A stretch of DNA of 63,715 bases, counting the filler, from Collodictyon triciliatum (Eukaryota), in the NCBI GenBank assembly GCA_043381765.1. It is 11 parts of 11 records of this genome, joined end to end, with 100 filler letters (N's around TTAATTAATTAA, not from the genome) between each part and the next. Parts side by side here need not be neighbours in the genome. Positions count along the whole stretch, not along the records: positions 59,164 to 61,684 come from JBHJMP010004546.1; 10 more parts are not named here. The stretch is one strand, 5' to 3'. Below the pieces are notes generated by a model. That model was given only the letters and a program-made list of their open reading frames with translations, ran no database searches and was not told where the DNA came from. This document shows positions 10,811-63,715 of the stretch, piece after piece. A program made the position numbers and the translations under genes. Positions within the stretch are counted from its first letter, which is position 1, and each line of letters opens with the position of its first letter.

Positions 10811-11206
10811 CTTGCTTGGAGAGTTCGTTATGCGGTTTAAATTAGACTCAAGCATTTACATGCTTCCTTAGACGATAGGTTTTCTTCTTCGCGAAGCCTC
10901 TCTCACCCAACTAGAAGAGTCACCTTTCCACCGCCCTCAACCACGATCGGCAGCTGTGATCATCAAAAGGAAAGTTTGATCTCGATCGATTGTGGTGAGT
11001 CCATTTCTGGAATAAAAGACAAGGGTGGAAGAGCGCGTCTTAATCTGGACAAGTTCTTCAGAAGGCCAACAACCAAACCAGATTGGGCTGCGAAGAAGAG
11101 AAACAAATCGTCGAAATAAAAATAAATAAAAAACAAAACAAAAAACAAATACTAACGACAATCATTGGCGTACAAGGAGGAATAATTTGGGATTTTTTTT
11201 TTATTG

Positions 11207-12358
11207 CTACAGGCAACAGACAGTATTATTTTTGACCTGAGCAACATAAAGTCTTCCATCAGGCCCAAATCTGCACCCGCTAGCTCCCTTGCATGATATT
11301 TTTCTGAGCAACAGGAACTCCTTACTGTAAAAGAATATTGACCCATTCCAATAATCCGTTACAATGAATCCACCACCAAAACTTCGGGCCATCCCATTTC
11401 CGTAGCATGTCGTCTCGATTTTATGCCTTTCAATGAATTGTCCATCTTGATCGAATACAAGGACAGCTCGATTACCGCCTTCGACGACCAAAAGTTGCTC
11501 TGAATCGTTTATAGCCAGGCCATAAGGTTCCCCCACTGGAGCTTTAGATGAGCTGTCTCCTATGTGGCATATAAAATCTCCATTCATAGAATACTTGAAC
11601 ACAGACCCTTCATTACAATCTGCAACGTAAAAACTGCCGTGCTTGTCAACAGCCGTGAAAAAAGGAGACATTATTTCAGGCTCTAGCGAAGCTTCACCAG
11701 ACATTCCATTCCACCAAACTGGGTTTCCACACATCCTTATCAATGTTCCATCCAAACGAAGAACCCAAATGCAACTTGGTTCGTTGCTGCAAGCAACATA
11801 GAGTCGTTCTCCATCGTTTGAAAATTCCAGCGACCGAGGGTACCTGAAATCAACACGTGCTTCCACCTTGAATACCTCAATAAACTCGAGATTCGGAGTG
11901 AAAACCTGGATGCGATTATTACCAGAATCTGCAACATAGACATTCCCTGTCGCAGGGTGGATAGCTAAATCATTTGGTTTGCGAAACTTACCCAGCTCCG
12001 AACCTTCACTGCCAACTTGAATTTTTATTTCCTCTGTTATCGTTTCCCATTTCCTTGGAATAGAATATCTCCCCGAATGAACAATCCTTGTCTTTGACAA
12101 TCCTGATTCCGAAGACACAGACTCATTTACAAGGTCAGCAATACGGTCCCAGGCTACATGGACCGGACGAACATACGACAGGTTTGCATGGAATGTGCTG
12201 TTTGTTGATAAACACGATTTCAAGACACTTAACCACGGGATGAATAATCCAGCCATATCTTTGTGTGAAGTTCGAGTGCGGGCGCGGGCATTCACTTGCA
12301 TAATGGCTCGAAGATAGTGAGACGAAAGGACGTTTTGTTGCTCAGTCAATCCATTCAT
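11207..12358 (-). CDS. Intronless NHL-repeat (beta-propeller) protein, 383 aa
   Basis: GSEGSELGKFRKPNDLAIHPATGNVYVADSGNNRIQVF and PYGLAINDSEQLLVVEGGNRAVLVFDQDGQFI are NHL repeats; single uninterrupted ORF. Confidence 0.85.
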   Translation of the reverse strand: MNGLTEQQNVLSSHYLRAIMQVNARARTRTSHKDMAGLFIPWLSVLKSCLSTNSTFHANLSYVRPVHVAWDRIADLVNESVSSESGLSKTRIVHSGRYSIPRKWETITEEIKIQVGSEGSELGKFRKPNDLAIHPATGNVYVADSGNNRIQVFTPNLEFIEVFKVEARVDFRYPRSLEFSNDGERLYVACSNEPSCIWVLRLDGTLIRMCGNPVWWNGMSGEASLEPEIMSPFFTAVDKHGSFYVADCNEGSVFKYSMNGDFICHIGDSSSKAPVGEPYGLAINDSEQLLVVEGGNRAVLVFDQDGQFIERHKIETTCYGNGMARSFGGGFIVTDYWNGSIFFYSKEFLLLRKISCKGASGCRFGPDGRLYVAQVKNNTVCCL

Positions 12359-13483
12359 TTTGTTTGCTGAAGCCCGGCAGCCATCAAGCTATGCGTTAAT
12401 AACCAATTAGAGGCCAGCTTCTGATCTGGGATTATTGTGACACTTTTTGTTTTCTTCGTCTATTAGATAAAACTTGTGATGAAGAAAGTGGTACTTGATC
12501 AAGCGCTCGTTTCTGCCAGAAAGCTACTTGGGCCATGAGTTTTTGGTAAAAGCTTATTATCTCAGAGTCTGCACCCTCGCAGAAACTCGCTATCTATTTG
12601 GAATGCTGTCAGTCAACTCTGTTCTTGTTGGGTCATAATGCTACAAGGGAAGAACACCTGATCGCTGCGCACGTCAAGCTCGCTCGCCCGGGCCCGAACC
12701 AAACTGATCTCTGCCATGATGGACTCCTTGGTTTGTCGTATGAAACAGCCTCAGTCTTTTCTCTCCCCCTCGCCCTCTCCTTTTCATGGTTATTTTGATT
12801 ATTATACTTTTGTTATTGTCACTGTTGTTATTATTGTAATTGTTGCAATTATTTTTTTTTTAATTCTTTAGGTGTTTCGATCAATTTTTAGGACGGATGT
12901 TTTTCCTTGCTGCTTCGGAAGTGATCTTTGTTTTGGTCCGCGCGCGTTCCAGCACAAACCGAAAAACCGATACTTGAATCAAATATCACAAAACAAAAAA
13001 CGAAAAACGAAAAACAAAAAACAAAAAACAAAAAACAAAAAACAAAAAACAAAAAACAAAAAACANNNNNNNNNNNNNNNNNNNNNNNNNNNNNNNNNNN
13101 NNNNNNNNNTTAATTAATTAANNNNNNNNNNNNNNNNNNNNNNNNNNNNNNNNNNNNNNNNNNNNTTTCATTTCTTTCATTTCTTTCATTTCTTTCATTT
13201 CTTTCATTTCTTTCATTTCTTTCATTTCTTTCATTTCTTTCATTTCTTTCATTTCTTTCATTTCTTTCATTTCTTTCATTTCTTTCTTTTCTTTCTTTTC
13301 TTTCTTTTCTTTCTTTTCTTTCTTTTCTTTCTTTTCTTTCTTTTCTTTCTTTTCTTTTGTCCTCTCATATCAATTATTCTATTGGTTATTTTTATTTTGC
13401 CTGTTCTTTGCTGGAGTTGTCTTCGCAGCTATCTACACAATGGTTTACATGAGATATATCCTTTCCCTGGGATGCAGTTCAGA

Positions 13484-52599: not shown

Positions 52600-55500
52600 T
52601 CTATTTGGCATTCTATCGGGTAGCTGTCTATTGAAAGAGAAAATGAAAACAGGGCTGGGATTTTCATAGCTGAAATTATGATTGAGCTCCATTTTACATC
52701 AAAGTTCGCCAAATATGACAAAACTTGGAAATGTGTGGAGAGGGATTTCAAGATTTGAATATTTCCCGTTCTTGTCTGCCTTGATTGCTCTATCATGAAG
52801 AAAACGAAGGCAAGTGGAATAAAAAAGCTCAGGAAAATCAAGAATATGTTCACTCCTTTCGGTGGGCATTTAGTGCAATAGACACCAGTTTTTCCGTATC
52901 CATTTTCACAAACACTACATAATGGCCCAGTGTATCCATCAGCACAAGTTTTGTTTCCTCCGTTACATGCGTTTTCATTCAAGCATTTATAGGCGACATA
53001 TTCTCCATTTGTAGTTTGAGCCTGCCAATATCCAGTGGCAACAGTTGGTTGACTGGTTCCTTCACATTCAAATCCCTCAGGACATGTTTTACAATATTTT
53101 AATCCATAATCATCGCTGTATGTATCTGAAGGACATTCGTAGCAGTTTCCTTGCTTTTCATACCACCCTGGTTTGCATTCACAAGTGGAGTTTCTTAACT
53201 CAAATCCCTGTTTGCATTCGCAATCGGTTGAATTCATCGAACCGTTGCTTTTTGTCGTAAATTTATCGCCACAAGACAAGCAGAAATTTGTGCCGTTTGT
53301 TGGTTTGTATGAGCCAAGTCTGCACGGAACACACTCACTTCCATCCTCAAATTTTCCCGGAGGACATGTGCAAATGCCATCATGTGACACATAACTATCT
53401 AAGCACTTGCAATCATCTATTGATTTGGAGCCTTCTTTTATTGTGGTTGAGCGTGTCGGACATGAGCTGCATGATGCGCTTCTTTCTGAGCTGTAGCTTC
53501 CATTTGGACATGAAATGCATGACGAATTATCAAAAGAGCCAGTTTTGTTGTTGAATGTACCAGCTTGACACGATGTGCATGATGCTTGACCATCTCTATC
53601 ATTCCAAGTACCTTCTGGACATTCAATACATGATTTGTTTCCATATGAGCCGGAGTTTGAGTTGAATGTGCCTTTTGGACAAGCATAGCATGAGTTCGAG
53701 TCTTTAATGATGTCTTCTTTTTGATAGAGTCCTGATAAGCATAAGCTGCATGAAGCGCTTCTTTCGGAGCTGTAGCTTCCATTCGGACATGAAAAGCATG
53801 ATGATTGATTGTATGAGCCAGATTTGTTGTTGAATGTCCCAGCTGGGCATGATGTGCATGATGCTTGACCATCCTTATCATTCCAGGTACCTTGTGGACA
53901 TTCAATGCATGATTTGTTTCCGTAAGAGCCGGAGTTTGTGTTGAATGTACCTTTTGGACAAGCGTAGCGTGATTTTGAGTCTTTTATTCCTTCTTTTTGG
54001 TAGAATCCTGATAAGCATAAGCTGCATGATGCGCTTCTCTCTGAGCTGTAGCTTCCATTGTGACATGGTATACATGATGATTGGTTGAATGAGCCACTTT
54101 TATCGTTGAATGCACCAGCTGGACATGATGTGCATGATGCTTGACCGTCTCTATCATTCCAAGTGCCTTGTGGACATTCAATGCATGATTTGTTTCCATA
54201 TGAGCCGGGGTTTGAGTTGAATGTGCCTTTTGGACAGGCATAGCATGATTTTGAATCTTTTGTGATTCCTTCTTTTTGATAGAATCCTGATAAGCATAGA
54301 CTACATGAAGCGCTTCTCCGGCTGAACTGTAGCTTCCATTTGGACATGAAATGCATGATGATTGATCGAACGAGCCACTTCTGTTGTTGAATGTACCAAC
54401 TGGACATGGTGTGCATGATGCTTGACCATTTCTATCATTCCAAGTACCTTGTGGACATTCAATGCATGATTTGTTTCCATATGAGCCGGAGTTTGAGTTG
54501 AATATGCCTTTTGGACAAGAATAGCATGATTTTGAGCCTTTTATGAAACCTTCTTTTTGGTAGAATCCTGATAAGCATAGACTGCATGATGCGCTTCTTA
54601 ATGAGCTGTAGCTTCCGTCTGGACATGACATGCAGGATGATTGATTAAATGAGCCAGTTTTGTCGTTGAATGTGCCAGCTGGGCATGATTTGCAATCATC
54701 TCTGTAATCATTACCATAAGTTCCTGCAGGACATTTAACACATGATGATTTTTCTGTAGAACCAAATTTTGGGTTATAAGTACCATCTGTACAGTTGATG
54801 CACGAGTGTTGGCCGATATGTGGATTGTATGAGCCAGGCTGGCATAGTTCACACGTTGATTCGCCAGACTTTGATGAAAATCTTCCTCTTGGACATAGCT
54901 GACAGCCGCTTATACTCTTTGATGCAACATTGGGATTGTGGGAACCAGCCGGACATTTTTCACAGGTGATTGATTTTGTTTTGTTTGAGTAAGTTCCAGT
55001 GAGGCATGGACTACAAAATTGCTTTCCTTCCTCATTGATGAAATAACCAGCAGGACAATCGAAGCAGCTTGACTTTCCATCGACGCTGTTGTATGTTCCA
55101 GGTTCACATAGCAGACAGGATGAATTTCCAGTACCTCTGATGGTTGGATTGAATGTTCCTGCAGGGCATGGAGCACACAACTTATCTCCTGCATTGCTGT
55201 AAAATCCAGCAGTACAATTATTACACGATACTCAACCCTTGAAATTATTGAACGCTCCAGCTTCGCATTTTTTGCATACTGATTGGCCCAAAAGATAATT
55301 GTATGTCCCTTCCTCACAGAGAAGACAATCTATAAGGCTTGTTGAACCAGTTGATGGATTATAAGTTCCAGTTGGACATAATAAACAAGAGGTGAGCTCA
55401 TTTCCATTATTGTAAGAGCCAGTCGGACATTTTTCGCATGCATTTGATTGCTGGTTGAAAAAAGTATCCTCCTTGGCATGGACTCCAGACTTTGATAAAT

Positions 55501-56672
55501 GTGTCTGTGCTTGCTGAAATTATTTTCGAATCAAGAGTTGCAAAAACACAATTAACGGAACCGGTGTGACTCAAAAGTGTTCGAATTCCTCTTCCATCTG
55601 ATATTGTCCATATTTTGACTGATTTATCACTGCTTCCAGAGTACAGTTTTGTTCCATCAGTTGATATTGAAATGCTATTTAATGAGCTTAAATGTCCCAT
55701 GAGGGTTCTAATTAACATGCCATCTGATACGTTCCAAATTTTGATTGTGTTATCGCTGCTTCCAGAGAGGATTCTTGTTCCATCTGGAGAAGTAATGACG
55801 CATCTGACAGCATTTCCGTGACCGGTTATGGTTCCTATTAATGCTCCATCTGATAAATTCCATATTTTCATTGAAAAATCAGCACTGCCTGATATTATTT
55901 TGCTGTTATCAGGAATGATAAAAACAGAATTCACTCCTTTTGTATGTCCAGATAATGTTCGAGTTAAAATTCCATCTGAAACTCTCCAAATATTTATATT
56001 CTTATCATCGCCTCCTGATACTATAAGATAACTATCTGATGTTATTGAAACGCTTCGACCAGCTGAAGTATGTCCGCTTAATGTTTTTAATAGTAAACCA
56101 TCCGAGAAATTCCACATTTTTATTGTGCTATTACTGCTTCCTGACACTATTTTTGTTCCATCAGCCGAAACAACTACACTATTCACAGCACTTACATGGG
56201 CATTTATCGAAAGAGCTTGGGAACCATCGGCATAATTCCAGATCCTTACTGTGTTATCGCTACCTCCTGACACAATTTTCGTTTATCTGGGCTTAAAGAA
56301 ACGCTATTCACTGAAGTTGAGTGGCCTGAAACAGTCAAAATCAAACTGAAATCAGGAAAATTCCACAATTTTATTTATGTGTCATCGCTTCCTGACAAAG
56401 ATTTCGTGCCATAAGAGAGGACTGATATTCCATTTATTTGACCTCTATCTTCATTCACAATTTATTGTGACTCCATTAAAAAAATTACATATTCTTATAG
56501 TATTATCACTGCTTCCAGAAATAATCTTTGAGCCATCAGTAGAAATTGAAACAGTGTTTACTATTCCGGTGTGCCCATTGAGTGTGCAAATTAATCTCCC
56601 ATCTAACATGCTTGTTATTTTTATTGTCTTGTCACTGCTTCCAAAGACAATTTTTGTTCCATCTGGTTTTAT
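52600..56672 (-). pseudogene. Intronless WD40 + Cys-rich (GCC2/GCC3, ephrin-receptor-like) repeat + multi-TM protein gene, disrupted
   Basis: WD40 repeats (GH..SV..V....DG.KI.SGS.D.TIKIW) at 56672-55480, then CPAGTY-type repeats, then PTVATGYWQ..C..GYTGPLCSVCENGYG and TM segments. Lesions: frameshifts near 56282, 55460 (T6 run) and 54320 (+2), and an in-frame TGA at ~55232. Confidence 0.85.
53460..54690 (-). repeat. Near-identical internal tandem repeat, ~279-bp (93-aa) unit, ~4.4 copies
   Basis: Anchor TGGACA.G..TAGC.TGA recurs at 53676, 53955, 54231 and 54512 (spacings 279, 276, 281). Confidence 0.9.
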
Positions 56673-58330
56673 TACAACGTCCTTGTCAAATGTCTTTTCA
56701 ATTCGGTCCATAAACAATTGTTCACTTCTTTATATATTAACATACTGTCTCCATTTCATCTTTCGAAAAGTCACTTGTTCATAAAATCTGGAAAGATCTG
56801 TCTGGTATCTTGATTTCATAGATACATATTTTCGAAATTTTTCATTATCGACCGTTCATGAATTATGTTTACTAATTTGTCTCTAATCGATTAAAGATAC
56901 TGTCAATGTATCAAACTGCTGATTATCTTCAAAATTCGTAGCACCAAAAGAAATAGAATTTTGTAAATCTGCTGCCATGTTTATCCCTGAAGGCATTGCA
57001 CTTTTTTCTCGCGCAAGAGTATGTTGTGATTTTTAAGAGATTTGCTGTCATGTCTTGTTTGGTGTGCTGTGTAACATAATTTCTTACCTGTTTCATCCAC
57101 CATGTAAACCAAATTAAACTTACCTGTGTTCATTCCAACTATTTTTTTGTCGCTAATAAATAAAACTGCTCTACAGAAAGTTCATGTATATAAACATATT
57201 CTTGAGTTTTTGATTTTGATTGAATTTTGAATTTGAAATATCTTTCTTTTTCAAATAATAATAACTGCCAAGCTATCTGTTTGTATCATGTATTTAAAAT
57301 TGTACTCTGTTTGATGAAAGTCCTTCTTCTTCATTTCAAAGAACTCATCCCATAGTGTCTCCTTTCAACCTGATATATTCTTCAGTAATGATGTTTTTCG
57401 GACAATACTAATAGATATATCAAAAATGCAGTATCTTAAGTAATATGACATGATATATTGTTAGTTCTTATGGAGATTGGTTGAAACAGTTTGGTTCCGA
57501 TGTCCTCAAAAATGTGATTCCTGTAAATAAAAAATGGTTTGTACTTATTTGGATTGACTTTGACGTTATATTCGATACCATTTACAATATCGCTGGGAAT
57601 GATATGATGAAAATGCGATGTAGCCCATTATTTGTGTTTTTACGGTATTTCGAGATTCTTGAAGATGGCTTTTTTAACTTTTGTAACTCTTGTCGTGAAT
57701 AAAAAAAAACTTTTGTAACTCTGCCCTTTTTAATAGCATTCGTCATATTCTCATCTTAAGGATAATGTTTGATTTATAAAGCGCAATAGCCTCTTTACAA
57801 AATGTTCCTTAATTTTATAGTGTGATAAGCTGTTAACATTAGCTTTGCCAAGGACGGTAGTACACGAGACAGTCCAAACAATGGAAAGCATTCTTTTCGG
57901 GACAAAAGGAATAGAAAATCATAGAAATAAAAAGTCACAATGTCATCTCTCATAACTGGATTATTTTTTTTAATCTTGCGGGTCTATCTTGTGAAACTAT
58001 TCCGACTGACTTTAAAGCGTACAAAAAACTTTTCATCGATTGTTGGGAGTTGTGATTTCAATATGTAACATCTTGCAAACAGATAAGTGTCGGTAACCAA
58101 ATTATGGCACAATAAAACCGTATCGTTGATTTTGTCATAGTCATTCGCATTCTTTACAATCGGCTCCAGAGATGTTTTCACATTAAGATAGTCTGTTTTT
58201 ACAGATTTTAGATTCTCAAACTCAAGGCGTTTTCTTTTCTTCATTTGAACGTCTTTTTTTACTTTTTTTCTTTAGGAAACTACCGAGTTTTCAATTTAAT
58301 AAAACATTAGTCAATCAGTCAATTTAATGA
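56673..58330 (-). mobile_element. Fanzor1 element copy 1 (decayed; 3' part including RuvC-II/III deleted)
   Basis: ATG at 58244 gives MKKRKRLE..NVKTSLEPIVKN..KINDTVLLCHNLVTDTYLFARCY, then YMIQTDS.AV, KK/IVGMNTGKFNLVYMVDETG and RQY..K.EQLFMDRIEKTFDKDVV. Many frameshifts and stops; homologous to copies 2 and 3. Confidence 0.85.
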
Positions 58331-59766
58331 ATACAAACAACAGTATAAAATCAATTTATGTAAAATTAAGCATCTACCGAAACTTTCAAAATATGCGCAT
58401 TGTGGCAAACAAACACATAAAGTTTTTTTTAGTAAGTGATTGGAGACAAAACGCTGGGAGCTGATTCGGCGAGTTCGAAAGGACGGCGGTATAGCCATTG
58501 CAGCTGAAAGTCAAGATATCGGCCCCAAACAACATTATTATCGCCACAAGTGTGGATAGTGTGCTTTTTTGAAATGCATGTTTGATGGCAGGTTATAGGG
58601 TGGGTTCTGTCTGGGACAAGGTAAGGGCTTGTTTGTCATCCTTGAATTTTAATGATGATATTGTATAATGGATAATAAAATAAAAATTGATTATAGGAAT
58701 AGAATGAGATTATTAAGTATTTTTAATCTTTATTATATATACTAATCAAACTACTATATTATTCAGGTTGTTTCTTGGATTCATTAAAGCACTTGCTTTT
58801 GTCAACCCAGATTTAATTCGATGGTTGTCTGTGCAATAAACTGGACTATATATGTGTACACTTTCGTTGTATAGAAAGGTTGTGTTTTGAAAGGGGTAAA
58901 ACCAACCTCGTCACAACCTTTGTTATGAATTTTATCCATTTACAGGCTGAATGAGACCGAAGATAAATGAAAAGAAAAAGAAAAAGAAAAAGAAAAAGAA
59001 AAAGAAAAAGAAAAAGAAAAAGAAAAAGAAAAAGAAAAAGAAAAAGAAAAAGAAAAATAGAAANNNNNNNNNNNNNNNNNNNNNNNNNNNNNNNNNNNNN
59101 NNNNNNNTTAATTAATTAANNNNNNNNNNNNNNNNNNNNNNNNNNNNNNNNNNNNNNNNNNNNAAAAGAAAATAAAAGAAAATAAAAGAAAATAAAAGAA
59201 AATAAAAGAAAATAAAAGAAAATAAAAGAAAATAAAAGAAAATAAAAGAAAATAAAAGAAAAGAAAATAAAATAAAAGAAAAGAAAAGAAAAGAAAATAA
59301 AAGAAAAGAAAAGAAAAGAAGAAAAATGAAAAAAATGAAAAAAATGAAAAAATGAAAAAATGAAAAAAATGAAAAAAATGAAAAAAGAAAAAAGAAAAAA
59401 AGAAAAAAGAAAAGAAAAATGAAAAATGAAAAAAGAAAAATGAAAAATGAAAAATTGAAAATGAAAATGAAAAAAAAAGAAAAAGAGAAGAATGAGGGAA
59501 AACGGCCAGGGAGATTCATTTGCCAGTGAGCAGACTGGTGATCATTGGCAAAACACCGTATTGGCACTGCAACAGACGCGAGATAGCCGGTCGTGCGACT
59601 TGTCGCATTACTGGTATGCAGGGAAGCATTAGCACAGAATTTTTAAAAAAAATTCCAGAATAAACCACCGTTACTTTTTAGTGATGTCGTCTCCAAACAT
59701 GTCGCGTTTTCTGCGTTTACATAAATTGTATGGCACAAACGGCTTCACATGCTCTGTTTTATAGTC

Positions 59767-59890
59767 CTAGGCTGTAAGATATACCAATCAAAAGATTGGT
59801 AAACGTGGTGCGCTAGTATCAAAGGTCTCACCACTTTTTTTCACAAAGATTGTGTAGTGGTGAAGGCTGCCAGGAAAGACCCGACAGCCT
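59767..59890 (-). ncRNA. Candidate Fanzor omega-RNA scaffold (three stem-loops, possible pseudoknot)
   Basis: Just 3' of the RuvC-III region: AGGCTGTCGGG-TCTTT-CCTGGCAGCCT (59890-59864), TCACCACT..CACAA-TCT-TTGTG..AGTGGTGA (59863-59828), then GACC complementary to GGTC of stem-loop 1, then TACCAATC-TTTT-GATTGGTA (59801-59782). The position is where TnpB/Fanzor omega-RNAs lie; boundaries are inferred. Confidence 0.6.
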
Positions 59891-61670
59891 ATTTTTTAAA
59901 AGAAGGTGTATGCATATTTTGAAGGATTGAAAGTTCTTTGTTGAGTATATTTTAGCGCTGTTAAAGTCCCTTGTCAAGAATATAGTTTGTTTGCTTTCTG
60001 GGCGATTGCATTCTTTACATATGGGACATCTATACACTTTTTTCCTATTTCCTTTCAGTGTCATATATTACAGTTCTTTTTCGCAGATACAGCACACCTT
60101 GGAGGTTCTAAATTCATCTGCACTAACTGTTTCAAAAAGTTTGGATAGTATTTTTCGTAATCCTCTTCTGATTGTTGGCATAAAATGCTTCATCTGAGAT
60201 TTTCTGCTCCAGTCTCCATACGCCAGTACAACATCATCGCCCAAATGTCTTTTCGATTCGGACCATAAACAATTCTTCACTTCTTTTTGTATTAACATAC
60301 TGTCTCCATCTTTGAATCGAATAAAGGAAAAAAAAAAAAAAAACATTGTCTCCATATCATCTTTCGAAAAGTTACTTGTTAATAAAATCTGGATAATTCT
60401 ATCTGGTATCTTGATTTCATAGGTATATATTTTCGAAATTGTTCATAATCGACCGTGAATGAATTATGTTTACCCAGTTCTGTCTCTAAATCGATTAAAG
60501 ATACTCTTGATGTCTTAAACCGCTGATTCTCTTCAAAAGTCCTGTGACCAAAAAGAAATAGCACTTTGTAAATCTGTTGCCATGTATATCCCTGAATCAT
60601 TGTAATTTTTTCTTTTTTTCTCGCACAAGAGTATGTTGTGATTTTTAAGAGGTTTGCTATCATGTCTTTTTTGGTGCGGTGTAACGTAATTTCTTACCTG
60701 TCTCGTCCACCATGTAAACCAAATTAAACTTGCCTGCGTTCACTCCAACTATTTTTTTGTCGCTAATAAAGATAACTGCTCTTCGGAAAGTTCATCTATA
60801 TAAACATATTCTTGGGTATTTGGATTATATTTGAATTTTGAATTTGAAATAGCTTTCTTTTCAAATAATATTGACACCGCCAAGCCGTCTGTTTGTATCA
60901 TATATTTTAAATTGCAGTCTCTTTGATGAAGGACTCTCTTCTTCATTTCAAAGAAATTATCTCATAGGGTCTCTTTGCATCCTGATATATTCTTCTTTAA
61001 TACTGTTTTTCTAGTTGATCCTAATACATCTATCAAAATGCAATATCTAGAGTAATATGACATGGTATATTGTTAGTTCTTATAGGGATTGGTTGAAGCA
61101 GTTTGGTTTCAATGCCCTCAAAAATGCAATTCATGTAAATCAGACACGGAATGTACTTATTTGGATTGACTTTGATGTTATATTCGATACCTTTTACAAT
61201 ATTGCTGGGAATGATATGATGCAAATGCATTGTAGCCCATTCTTTGTATTGTTCCAGTATTTCGAGATTCTTGAAGATGGATTTTTTAACTTTCGTAATT
61301 CTGCTTTTTTAATAGCTTCCGTAATATTCTCATCTTTAGGAACTGTTTGATTTACAAAGCACAGTAACCTCTTTACAAAATGTTCCTTAATCTTATTATG
61401 ATAAGCTGTTAACATTTGCTTCACCAAGTACGGTAATACATGAGACAGTCTAACCAACGGAGAGCGTTCTTCTTGAGACAAAAGGAATCGGAAATCATAG
61501 AGATAAAAAAAGTCATCATGTCATATTTCATTTCTGGTTTTTTATTTTTTTTTTTAAAAAAAACTTACGGGTCTATCTTGTGAAACTATTCCGACGGTCT
61601 TTAAAGCGCACAGCCCCCCCCCCCCCCCCCCCCACCTTTTTAAAAAAAAAAAAAAACTATCATAGATTGT
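59767..61670 (-). mobile_element. Fanzor1 element copy 2 (decayed; 5' end lost at gap, 3' end present)
   Basis: YMIQTDGLAVSILF, RuvC-I VGVNAGKFNLVYMVD, VVLAYGDWSRKSQMKHFMPT, RuvC-II ADEFRTSKVCCIC, second Cys pair CPICKEC and RuvC-III TRDFNSA: the TnpB/Fanzor1 motif order. Confidence 0.9.
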
Positions 61671-61784
61671 CATCTAAAAAAAAANNNNNNNNNNNNNNNN
61701 NNNNNNNNNNNNNNNNNNNNNNNNNNNNTTAATTAATTAANNNNNNNNNNNNNNNNNNNNNNNNNNNNNNNNNNNNNNNNNNNN

Positions 61785-61829
<45 letters not shown>

Positions 61830-61834
61830 TTTTA

Positions 61835-63660
61835 TTAAATTGACTAATTGATTGAAGTTTTATTAAAATTGAAAACTCGGTAGTTTTCTAAAGGAAAAGG
61901 TAAAACAAAGACTTTCAGATAAAGAAAAGAAATCGTCTTGAGTCTGAGAATCTAAAGTCTGTAAAACCAGACTATCGAAATGTGAAAACATCTCTCAAGT
62001 TGATTGTAAAGAATGTGGATGACTATTACAAAACCAACGATACTGTTTTGTTATGTCATAATTTGGTTACCGACACTTATCTGTTTGCAAGATGTTACAT
62101 ATGGAAATCACAACAACTCCCAACAATCGATGAAATAGTTTTTTTTTTGTACGGTTTAAAGACAGTCGGAGTAGTTTCACAAGATAGACCCTCAAGATTA
62201 AGAAAAAAAAAACCAAAAATGAGAAATGACATGATGAGTTTTTATCTCAATGATTTCCGATTTCTTTTGTCCCCAGGAGAACGCTCTCCGTTGGTTGGAC
62301 TGTCTCGTGTATCATTGTGCTTGGCGAAGCAAATGTTAACAACTTATCGTAATAGCATTAAGGAACATTTTGTAAAGAGGTTTCTGCGCTTTATAAATGA
62401 AACAGTACCTAAATATGAGAATATTACGGAAGCTATTTAAAAGACAGATACAAAAGTTAAAAAAAGCCATCTTCAAGAAACTCGAAATACCAGAGCAATA
62501 TAAAGAATTGATTAAACGCATTTGCATGAATCATTCCCAGCGGTATTGTAAATGGTATCGAATACGACGCCAAAGTCCATCCAAATAAGGACATTCCATG
62601 TCTGATTCACATGTATTGCATTTTTGGGGCATTGGAGCCAAACTTTTTCAATCAATCTCTATAAGAACTAACAATATACCATGTTATATTACTCAAGATA
62701 CGGTATGTTTGATAGAGCTATGTATTAAGCGGAAAAACATCATTAATGAAGAATATATCCGGATGCAAGGAAACCCTATTGGATGATTTCTTTGAAATGA
62801 AGAAGAGGGTCTTTCATCAAACAGACTGCAATATTTAATACACAATACAAACAGACGGCTTGGCGGTGTCATTATTGTTTGAGAAGAAAGGTATTTCGAT
62901 TTCAAAATTCAAGTATAATAAAATATAGTTCCAAGAATATGTTTATATAGATCAACTTTCCGAAGAGCAATTTTCTTTATTAGTGACAAAAAAAATAGTT
63001 GGAGTGGATGCAGGTAAGTTTAATTTTGTTTACATGGTGGACGAGACAGGTAAGAAATTACGTTATACGGCTCACCAAAGACATGATAGCAAATCTCTTA
63101 ATAGTCACAAAATACTCTTGCGCGAGAAAAAAGTAAAGTACAAGGATTTTGGGGTATACATGGCAACAGGTTTTAAAAGTGATATTTCTTTTGGTCAAAT
63201 GACTTTTGAAGAGAATCAGCAGTTTGAGACATTAAGAGTATCTTTAATCGATTTAGAGACAGAACTGTGTAAACATAATTCATACCGGTCGATTATGAAT
63301 AATTTCGAAAATATGTATCTATGAAATCAAGATGTCAGATAGAATTATCCAAACTTTATGAACAAGTAACTTTTCGAAAGTTGGGATGGAGGCAGTATGT
63401 TAATACAAAAAAAGTGAACAATTGTTTATGGACTGAATCGAAAAGACATTTGGCAAGGATGTTGTAGTGGCCTATGGAGACTGGAGCAGAAAATGTCAGA
63501 TGAAACATTTTATGCCAACAATCGGAAGAGGATTATGAAAAACACTATCCGAACGTTTTGAACAAGTTAGTGTAGATGAATTTAGAACCTTCAAGATATG
63601 CTGCAACTTCGAAAAAGAACTGGAATACATGCCACCGAAAGGAAATACAAAAAAAAAAAA
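61835..63660 (+). mobile_element. Fanzor1 element copy 3 (decayed; homology fades into A-rich sequence near window end)
   Basis: Same 5' leader as copy 1 (ATTAAATTGACT..TTGAAAACTCGGTAGTTT), start codon mutated to ATA, NVKTSLKLIVKN, intact RuvC-I KKIVGVDAGKFNFVYMVD, VVVAYGDWSRKCQMKHFMPTIG and RuvC-II SVDEFRTFKICC. Multiple frameshifts and stops. Confidence 0.9.
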
Positions 63661-63715
63661 AAAAAAAAAGGAGTAAAGAAGTGTAAAAAGTAAAAAAAAA
63701 AAACACACAAAAAAT

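Follow-up and report, generated by a model that had tools for sequence, protein, structure and literature searches.

A probable omega-RNA scaffold beside a decayed Fanzor1 gene in Collodictyon triciliatum

A decayed Fanzor1 gene and its copies

The DNA analysed here, which we call the window, is a stretch of 63,715 nucleotides from Collodictyon triciliatum, assembled from 11 parts joined end to end. It is eukaryotic, with 32-41% G+C, and has host-like genes at 11165-12673 and 53237-56351 that encode an NHL-repeat protein, a cysteine-rich Ephrin_rec_like repeat protein and WD40 repeats. On the minus strand at 59828-61613 there is a 5'-truncated Fanzor1 gene, which we refer to as copy 2. It aligns to residues 78-642 of P0002, the nearest intact relative (648 aa), but only in three frames and with in-frame stops. 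Copy 2 retains the EFRTSK, CxxC and TRDFNSA motifs, while at RuvC-I the family motif GVDPGK is replaced by GVNAGK, a change of D to N. The stops, the frameshifts and GVNAGK together indicate a dead member of the family. The RuvC-III motif TRDFNSA (59954-59974, minus strand) is 64 nt upstream of the first hairpin described below.

The assignment to Fanzor1 comes from the C-terminal part of the gene. A 204-residue read-through of this part (P0001; 59828-60442, minus strand, with an X at one TAA) matched 17 proteins of 370-656 aa at E<=0.001 from 310 candidates, with a best E of 3e-39. A profile of 14 of these 17 relatives (A2) matched SpuFz1 (8gkh) at E 2.3e-56, PpFz1 at 1.3e-54 and GtFz1 at 5e-41. 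Judged by protein similarity, the gene is a member of the Fanzor1 family, as a dead copy. Pfam searches of eight ORF pieces returned nothing relevant, and PF07282 was found under the cut-off in two of four full-length relatives. The ciliate code (table 6) was tried as an explanation for the in-frame TAA and rejected, as the Fanzor frames are still broken when it is applied. Table 6 does lengthen many frames, which is expected in AT-rich DNA; the standard code is enough to keep the Ephrin_rec_like and WD40 ORFs open, and the NHL-repeat frame was scanned only as a table 6 reading.

Three decayed copies of one Fanzor1 element are found inside 7 kb of the window (56739-63715). Copy 1 (~56739-58331, minus strand) has lost its 3' end, aligns only to 60227-61500 of copy 2 and has WD40-repeat ORFs on either side. 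The 5' end of copy 2 is cut near 61520-61613, next to poly-G and poly-A runs. Copy 3 begins at 61831 on the plus strand, head-to-head with copy 2, and leaves the window at the equivalent of 60038. Copies 1 and 3 have a common 5' end near 58331 and 61831, starting ATTAAATTGACT, about 85 nt ahead of the ATG. The nuclease is dead in copies 1 and 2, where the ORF can be read through, and copy 3 runs off the window. Between the region upstream of copy 1 and the downstream flank of copy 2 there is a long purine-rich microsatellite at 58950-59500, with GAAAAA/GAAAAG-type units and (GA)n, broken by two 44-N masked blocks. Since copy 1 is 3'-truncated and copy 3 exits the window, no second copy of the 3' end or of the hairpin region is present within the window, and for this reason we used more distant relatives as the comparison.

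Predicted fold and the former reading frame

Read as RNA from 59890 down to 59767 on the minus strand (RNA position i is 59891-i), the region is predicted to fold into three stem-loops, H1, H2 and H3. This bears out the sequence-only reading, which had described three adjacent stem-loops of 11 bp with G:U pairs, 8 bp with an inner 5 bp, and 8 bp. The minimum free energy of the region is -46.7 kcal/mol, whereas its shuffles average -25.3 (z -6.07), and none of 200 shuffles folded equally well; on the plus strand of 59767-59890 the z-score is -4.25. H1 pairs 59890-59880 with 59874-59864 in 11 bp, including two G.U pairs, around a loop of UCUUU. H2 has an 8-bp outer stem (UCACCACU/AGUGGUGA; 59863-59856 with 59835-59828) and a 5-bp inner stem (CACAA/UUGUG; 59854-59850 with 59846-59842), plus an A-run. 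H3 is an 8-bp stem with a 4-nt loop (ACCAAUCU../..GAUUGGU; 59801-59794 with 59789-59782). Around H3 the predicted fold alone gives a closing stem of 6 bp, in which CUAG(C)GC (59816-59810) pairs with GCCUAG (59772-59767), and the 3' strand of this stem holds the last structured bases. The linker GACCUUUGAUACUAGCGCACCACGUUU (59802-59827, minus strand) contains the 5' strand of the closing stem and also the GACC of a proposed pseudoknot that we discuss below.

Folded individually, with 300 shuffles for H1, H2 and the H3 core, the domains differ in how much they depend on the strand. On the minus strand H1 reaches -19.2 kcal/mol (z -5.2) and on the plus strand -10.4, and this gap, together with the two G.U pairs, indicates that the fold favours the sense (minus) strand. 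H2 (-11.5 kcal/mol, z -3.5) and H3 (core -8.2 kcal/mol, z -4.5) are about equally stable on both strands. The H3 domain with its closing stem has -16.0 kcal/mol and a z-score of -4.3. An Rfam search of the region gave no match at or near the gathering score (snR10 had E 6.9, and MIR1514 matched elsewhere at E 0.37).

The hairpins had been placed just after the RuvC-III region. They are indeed downstream of RuvC-III, but they do not simply follow the gene, as the ancestral reading frame crosses H1 and ends within H2. In a tblastn alignment of P0002 (frame -3), the ancestral frame shifts after RDFNSA and then reads NILNKELSILQNMHTPSFKK, a stop and AVGSFLAAFTTT, opposite NILNNALSILKIPHTKLFKKQAVGYSSTALTVT in P0002; from this alignment, H1 and the 5' half of H2 are the former last ~17-20 codons. 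H1 falls within the ancestral C-terminal coding frame (AVGSFLAA), and at its foot there is a premature in-frame UAG (59889-59891, minus strand) where P0002 has Q (KK-stop-AVGSF versus KKQAVGYS). The UGA that ends the ancestral frame is inside H2 (59841-59843, minus strand), and intact P0002 is about three codons longer. The structure at 59890-59767 is therefore on the strand of the gene with the ancestral stop within H2, a position at which an omega-RNA would be expected.

Close copies of the region were found in metagenomes. All 17 sequencing runs listed are freshwater or lake metagenomes or unlabelled, none of them is on record as RNA, and in 13 of the 17 parts of the stretch are present, amounting to no more than 0.23 of its words. 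Reads assembled at at least 80% likeness gave short contigs of ~80-300 nt; none spans the stretch and none bridges 59763-59792, while 59793-59951 is covered at ~90-97% identity. Among the differences listed, those at 59883 (four contigs) and 59851 (two contigs) turn Watson-Crick pairs into G.U and so retain the pairs, those at 59875, 59876 and 59849 are in loops, and those at 59846 and 59843 disrupt pairs of the H2 inner stem. Positions 59830 and 59835 of the H2 outer stem are also changed in the loose ends of contigs, again among the differences listed, with the partner positions not displayed. The differences listed include no double change of the compensatory kind. One ~90%-alike contig, read with its loose end, retains the 6-bp base of the H3 stem and has a changed apex, and one paralogous contig ends at ~59778. 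These close-copy substitutions are compatible with the structure, although they do not amount to a covariation test, and part of the conservation could be at the protein level because the hairpins overlap former coding sequence. It is true, as had been remarked, that the stems are clean although the ORF is dead, but with the present data this is no evidence of selection on them.

By eye, the flank downstream of the hairpins (59613-59762) has more G+C than the element. A lake-metagenome contig over these positions is 98.7% alike, above any copy of the element, which suggests that 59613-59762 is single-copy host sequence; the contig looks like the same locus and not another copy.

Structured RNAs of giant-virus and metagenome relatives

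Protein-guided scans supplied the best 80 of 531 metagenome loci, the best 80 of 389 viral loci and five loci from genomes (MAGs). All of these relatives are at most 47% identical to P0002, and among the loci kept many are on giant-virus MAG contigs. The five MAG loci (L161-L165) are on contigs filed as bacterial (Alphaproteobacteria, Bacteroidetes, Gallionella) and encode Fanzor1 relatives of 27-39% identity; the binning of these contigs is probably mistaken and their origin viral or eukaryotic. The 125 distinct 3' tails that we cut, each from the RuvC-III motif onward, come from the first 160 loci. Across these loci, on giant-virus and freshwater metagenome contigs (L001-L160, for example L003:3348-3505 and L093:4262-4423), there is an RNA-like element of ~160 nt, conserved and strongly covarying, which extends across the 3' end and stop codon of the Fanzor1 ORF. 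Rfam had no match for the three viral or metagenome loci tested.

Two groups of tails were aligned. In the majority clade (57 sequences, selected by fixed motif positions) there are 29 predicted pairs, six of them with compensatory changes, and identity stays at 90-100% up to GGUGUAAA and then collapses sharply. The clade nearest to P0002 in protein has eight sequences (alignment A6: L082, L003, L006, L083, L008, L001, L081 and L007) whose proteins are mostly 44-47% identical to P0002, with L006, L007 and L008 at 41-43%. Its alignment has 49 pairs, 22 with compensatory changes. The architecture of this closest clade starts with a 12-bp hairpin A and a module B that has an outer and an inner stem. 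A near-invariant linker CAAUCNGUUGAUUUU leads from there to a last domain with hairpins C and D, closed by UUUUAC/GUGUAAAA. A loop-linker pseudoknot within this clade (UCAAC/GUUGA, read from the alignment) was considered and rejected, as it is perfect in only three of the eight sequences and its partner is invariant.

The window tail had no blastn match to the 125 viral and metagenome tails, and the motifs GUUGAUUUUAC and AAGGUGUAAA are absent from it; TTGATTT is found in 123 of the 125 relatives' tails and AGGTGTA in 100 of the 125, and the window tail has neither. Scanning the viral contigs for an exact pattern of 18 specified bases at the junction of H2 and linker gave 0 matches. The window's AGGACUAUAAAAC has a likeness by eye only to the viral terminal motif AGGU(G/A)UAAAA, and we do not claim it.

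The covariance model of the closest clade (R2) matched the window at 59781-59894 on the minus strand with 22.7 bits; with the caveat that E-values of these models are rough, this is E 1.3e-5 in 8.7 kb and E 9.6e-5 over the whole window, where the runner-up among the 14 matches listed has 8.4 bits. As a control, R2 was applied to 15 loci of other viral clades; in all 15 the true 3' site scored between 11 and 60 bits, and the best off-site match was 15 bits in 82 kb. A sequence-only model from the same alignment (R3) scored the hairpin region at 3.9 bits (E 1.5, subject to the same roughness), rank 4 of 14. The difference between 3.9 and 22.7 bits indicates that base pairing carries the match, and not residual coding similarity. 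The model of the majority viral clade (R1) had no match at the hairpin region at E<=10 with filters off.

In the R2 match, H1 corresponds to hairpin A, with 11 of 12 model pairs formed, mostly by different letters. The H2 outer stem corresponds to the outer stem of B, with 5 of 5 pairs including one G-C to C-G swap relative to all seven viral rows, and the H2 inner stem corresponds to the inner stem of B, with four of six pairs formed. The model then aligns GAGACCUUUGAUACUA of the window with the conserved linker CAAUCaGUUGAuUUua of the relatives. In the 8-row alignment with the window row added, 93.8% of cells are paired, against 44-47% when the partners are slid, and changes on both sides are found in 27 pairs, compared with 5-6 after sliding; none of 500 shuffles reached the observed values, although the alignment was fitted to the model, which favours these figures. 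Only H1 and H2 were matched. The 20 of 49 R2 pairs in helices 6-8 have no counterpart in the window, the mapping of the last stem was forced, and a 27-nt window insert that includes H3 stands opposite 70 model positions. Under the covariance model, conserved secondary structure with compensatory changes relative to the viral clade is found for H1 and H2 only, and structure-level homology to the covarying RNA of the relatives is supported for these two. H3, which is specific to this lineage, is a short substitute for the guide-proximal domain of ~70 nt in the viral relatives.

These results also bear on whether the hairpins are chance by-products of the former C-terminal coding sequence and the AT-rich tail, with no role as RNA. 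That explanation would suit the position of H1 and most of H2 within the ancestral frame, the close metagenome copies with no double compensatory change among the differences listed, and the silence of R1 at the region. It has to contend with the z-scores of the region as a whole (-6.1) and of H1 by itself (-5.2), with an R2 match of 22.7 bits found only here and with the low score of the sequence-only R3. The C-terminal peptides of P0002 and of the viral clade are also unlike each other in this stretch, yet the pairs are kept. We consider chance or coding-driven hairpins very unlikely.

A further element of the sequence-only reading, a pseudoknot, found no support. The complement is literally present, with GGUCUU at 59881-59876 and GAGACC at 59829-59824, but the H1 stem already uses two of its bases and the H2 stem another two, and matches of this kind are at chance level. 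A 6-bp complement, with G.U allowed, occurred within 109 nt downstream in 41% of 5000 shuffles, and the 4-bp GGUC/GACC match in 23% of 5000 shuffles. GAGACC is unchanged in the loose ends of diverged metagenome contigs while neighbouring bases vary. In the relatives the 3' strand of the proposed pseudoknot aligns to a near-invariant single-stranded linker, CAAUCNG (the third-last base varies), and the homologous viral hairpin loop varies, being quite different in L006 and L008, with no covarying partner. A pseudoknot in the window is thus unsupported.

Identity of the RNA and comparison with known systems

Taken together, we think it quite probable that a Fanzor1 element, with its nuclease gene decayed in this copy, has its omega-RNA (fRNA) scaffold on the minus strand from 59894 to ~59760. 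This part of the original proposal is supported, since R2 matches this place and strand and R3 does not, and it is the pseudoknot that lacks support. Most likely the scaffold is an ordinary part of a known system, a diverged new member beside a dead gene.

A role as DNA is another alternative. The repeats could be inverted repeats at the right end of the transposon that a transposase or recombinase recognises as DNA and not as RNA. IS200/IS605 TnpA uses subterminal palindromes, and H2 and H3 do fold equally well on both strands, but H1 is only about half as stable on the other strand and the viral homologues are rich in G.U pairs (for example, UG in five and GU in two sequences at one pair). 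Fanzor1 elements are moreover not IS200/IS605 in the account given in the sections cited of 10.1101/2023.08.09.552727. Compared by eye only, the 5' end of copies 1 and 3 and the hairpin region share no terminal inverted repeat. We regard a DNA-level end as even less probable than chance hairpins.

Mimivirus transcripts follow a 'hairpin rule' for their 3' ends, the relatives are mostly on giant-virus contigs and the hairpins straddle the stop codon, so a termination or polyadenylation signal of the messenger, inherited from a giant-virus ancestor, might be imagined. It is the least probable of the three alternatives, given an architecture of ~160 nt and several stems, in which single-stranded linkers are conserved and conservation drops sharply after the last stem, far beyond a terminator, and given the equivalent layout described for Fanzor fRNA in the sections cited of PMC10530073.

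For the omega-RNA scaffold, by analogy with Fanzor and TnpB systems that have been characterised, we infer transcription, processing, protein binding, a scaffold end and a guide. The sense strand would be transcribed through the 3' end of the gene, and the last ~17-20 codons with the following ~80 nt would form hairpin A (H1) and module B (H2), followed by a short guide-proximal domain made of H3 and the closing stem. The Fanzor protein would bind this scaffold, and 15-21 nt transcribed from the DNA just past the end of the element would serve as the guide for DNA cleavage beside a TAM. The viral relatives' scaffold ends with the closing stem and AAAA, followed by variable sequence. By analogy, the A-rich tail GACUAUAAAAC and then the putative start of the guide would be at 59736-59766 on the minus strand, which would place the end of the scaffold between 59781, where the model match ends, and ~59757, the closing stem at 59767 plus GACUAUAAAAC, with the guide next. 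This would fall inside the 59780-59700 that the sequence-only reading gave for the element boundary. With a dead gene beside it, the scaffold could be active today only if an intact copy elsewhere supplied the protein.

The closest comparison is with the RNA of the giant-virus and metagenome clade. The two are alike in strand, in offset from RuvC-III, in the overlap of the last codons and in the order of hairpin A (H1), module B (H2) and a linker that contains UUGAU. They differ in that the clade has a 70-nt domain with hairpins C and D, whereas the window has a 27-nt segment with H3 and lacks GUUGAUUUUAC and GGUGUAAAA.

Among characterised Fanzor1 systems, SpuFz1 of Spizellomyces punctatus (8gkh) resembles the window in having a Fanzor1 protein and a sense-strand scaffold at the 3' end, as given in the passages cited from Saito et al. 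2023 (PMC10432273). Those passages describe a scaffold of 75 nt with two stems that lies past the stop codon, a guide of 15 nt and 'ghost' loci that have no ORF. The window RNA differs from it in being ~125-135 nt long with three stem domains, the first two overlapping the end of the ORF. The two are also alike with regard to the pseudoknot, as the SpuFz1 omega-RNA is described in the same passages as lacking that of TnpB (PMC10432273) and a pseudoknot in the window is unsupported. In the portion of Xu et al. 2024 cited here (PMC11423790), on the GtFz1 and PpFz1 RNAs, Fz1 omega-RNAs have 2-4 stem-loops, so the three of the window are within range, and the stretch between SL1 and the guide is poorly constrained, which fits the replaced third domain of the window. 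SL1 is 7 bp in all three solved Fz1 RNAs in that portion (PMC11423790), while H1 has 11 bp and H2 has 8 bp.

The layout itself has precedents in the sections of these papers that we cite. The omega-RNA or fRNA is at the 3' end of the element with the guide beyond it (PMC10432273; PMC10530073), an omega-RNA may overlap the ORF (PMC10432273, legend), and a conserved fRNA fold can extend into the coding region (PMC10530073). The mimivirus Fanzor2 ApmFNuc, which we liken to the window by layout, is described there as having a conserved fold from the coding region to the right end of the element, with the guide past it (Jiang et al. 2023, PMC10530073), but it differs in that it is a Fanzor2, is carried by an IS607 element and has a conserved non-coding stretch of ~200 nt beyond the ORF (PMC10530073). 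The ISDra2 and ISXfa1 TnpB omega-RNAs (reRNAs) follow the same principle, with a scaffold that runs over the 3' end of the nuclease gene and a guide taken from flanking DNA. In the sections cited of Yoon et al. (10.1101/2023.08.09.552727), the pseudoknot is common to TnpB and Fanzor2 and functionally required in the ISDra2 and ISXfa1 TnpB RNAs, in contrast to the window, where it is unsupported.

For the window, the result is the routine annotation of a decayed mobile element, and it confirms that an omega-RNA scaffold can be spotted by a reader from raw sequence. The comparison also gave a covariance model that can be used for a large Fanzor1 family, represented here by well over 100 distinct loci mostly on giant-virus contigs, whose guide RNA has no Rfam entry, as judged from three loci tested. 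By analogy, the scaffold may work like the 'ghost' omega-RNA loci of Spizellomyces, and it may equally be a fossil. A bolder view, which we consider unlikely, is that a eukaryote-resident branch of this mainly giant-virus family has retained the two ORF-overlapping modules, reduced the 70-nt domain to a minimal 8-bp hairpin and kept intact scaffolds beside dead genes by trans loading from a few intact copies or through another RNA-guided role. If true, this would be a natural miniaturisation of an omega-RNA, with 'ghost' guides outside fungi. That the guide-proximal domain has become shorter in nature may be of interest for work on miniaturising Fanzor guides.
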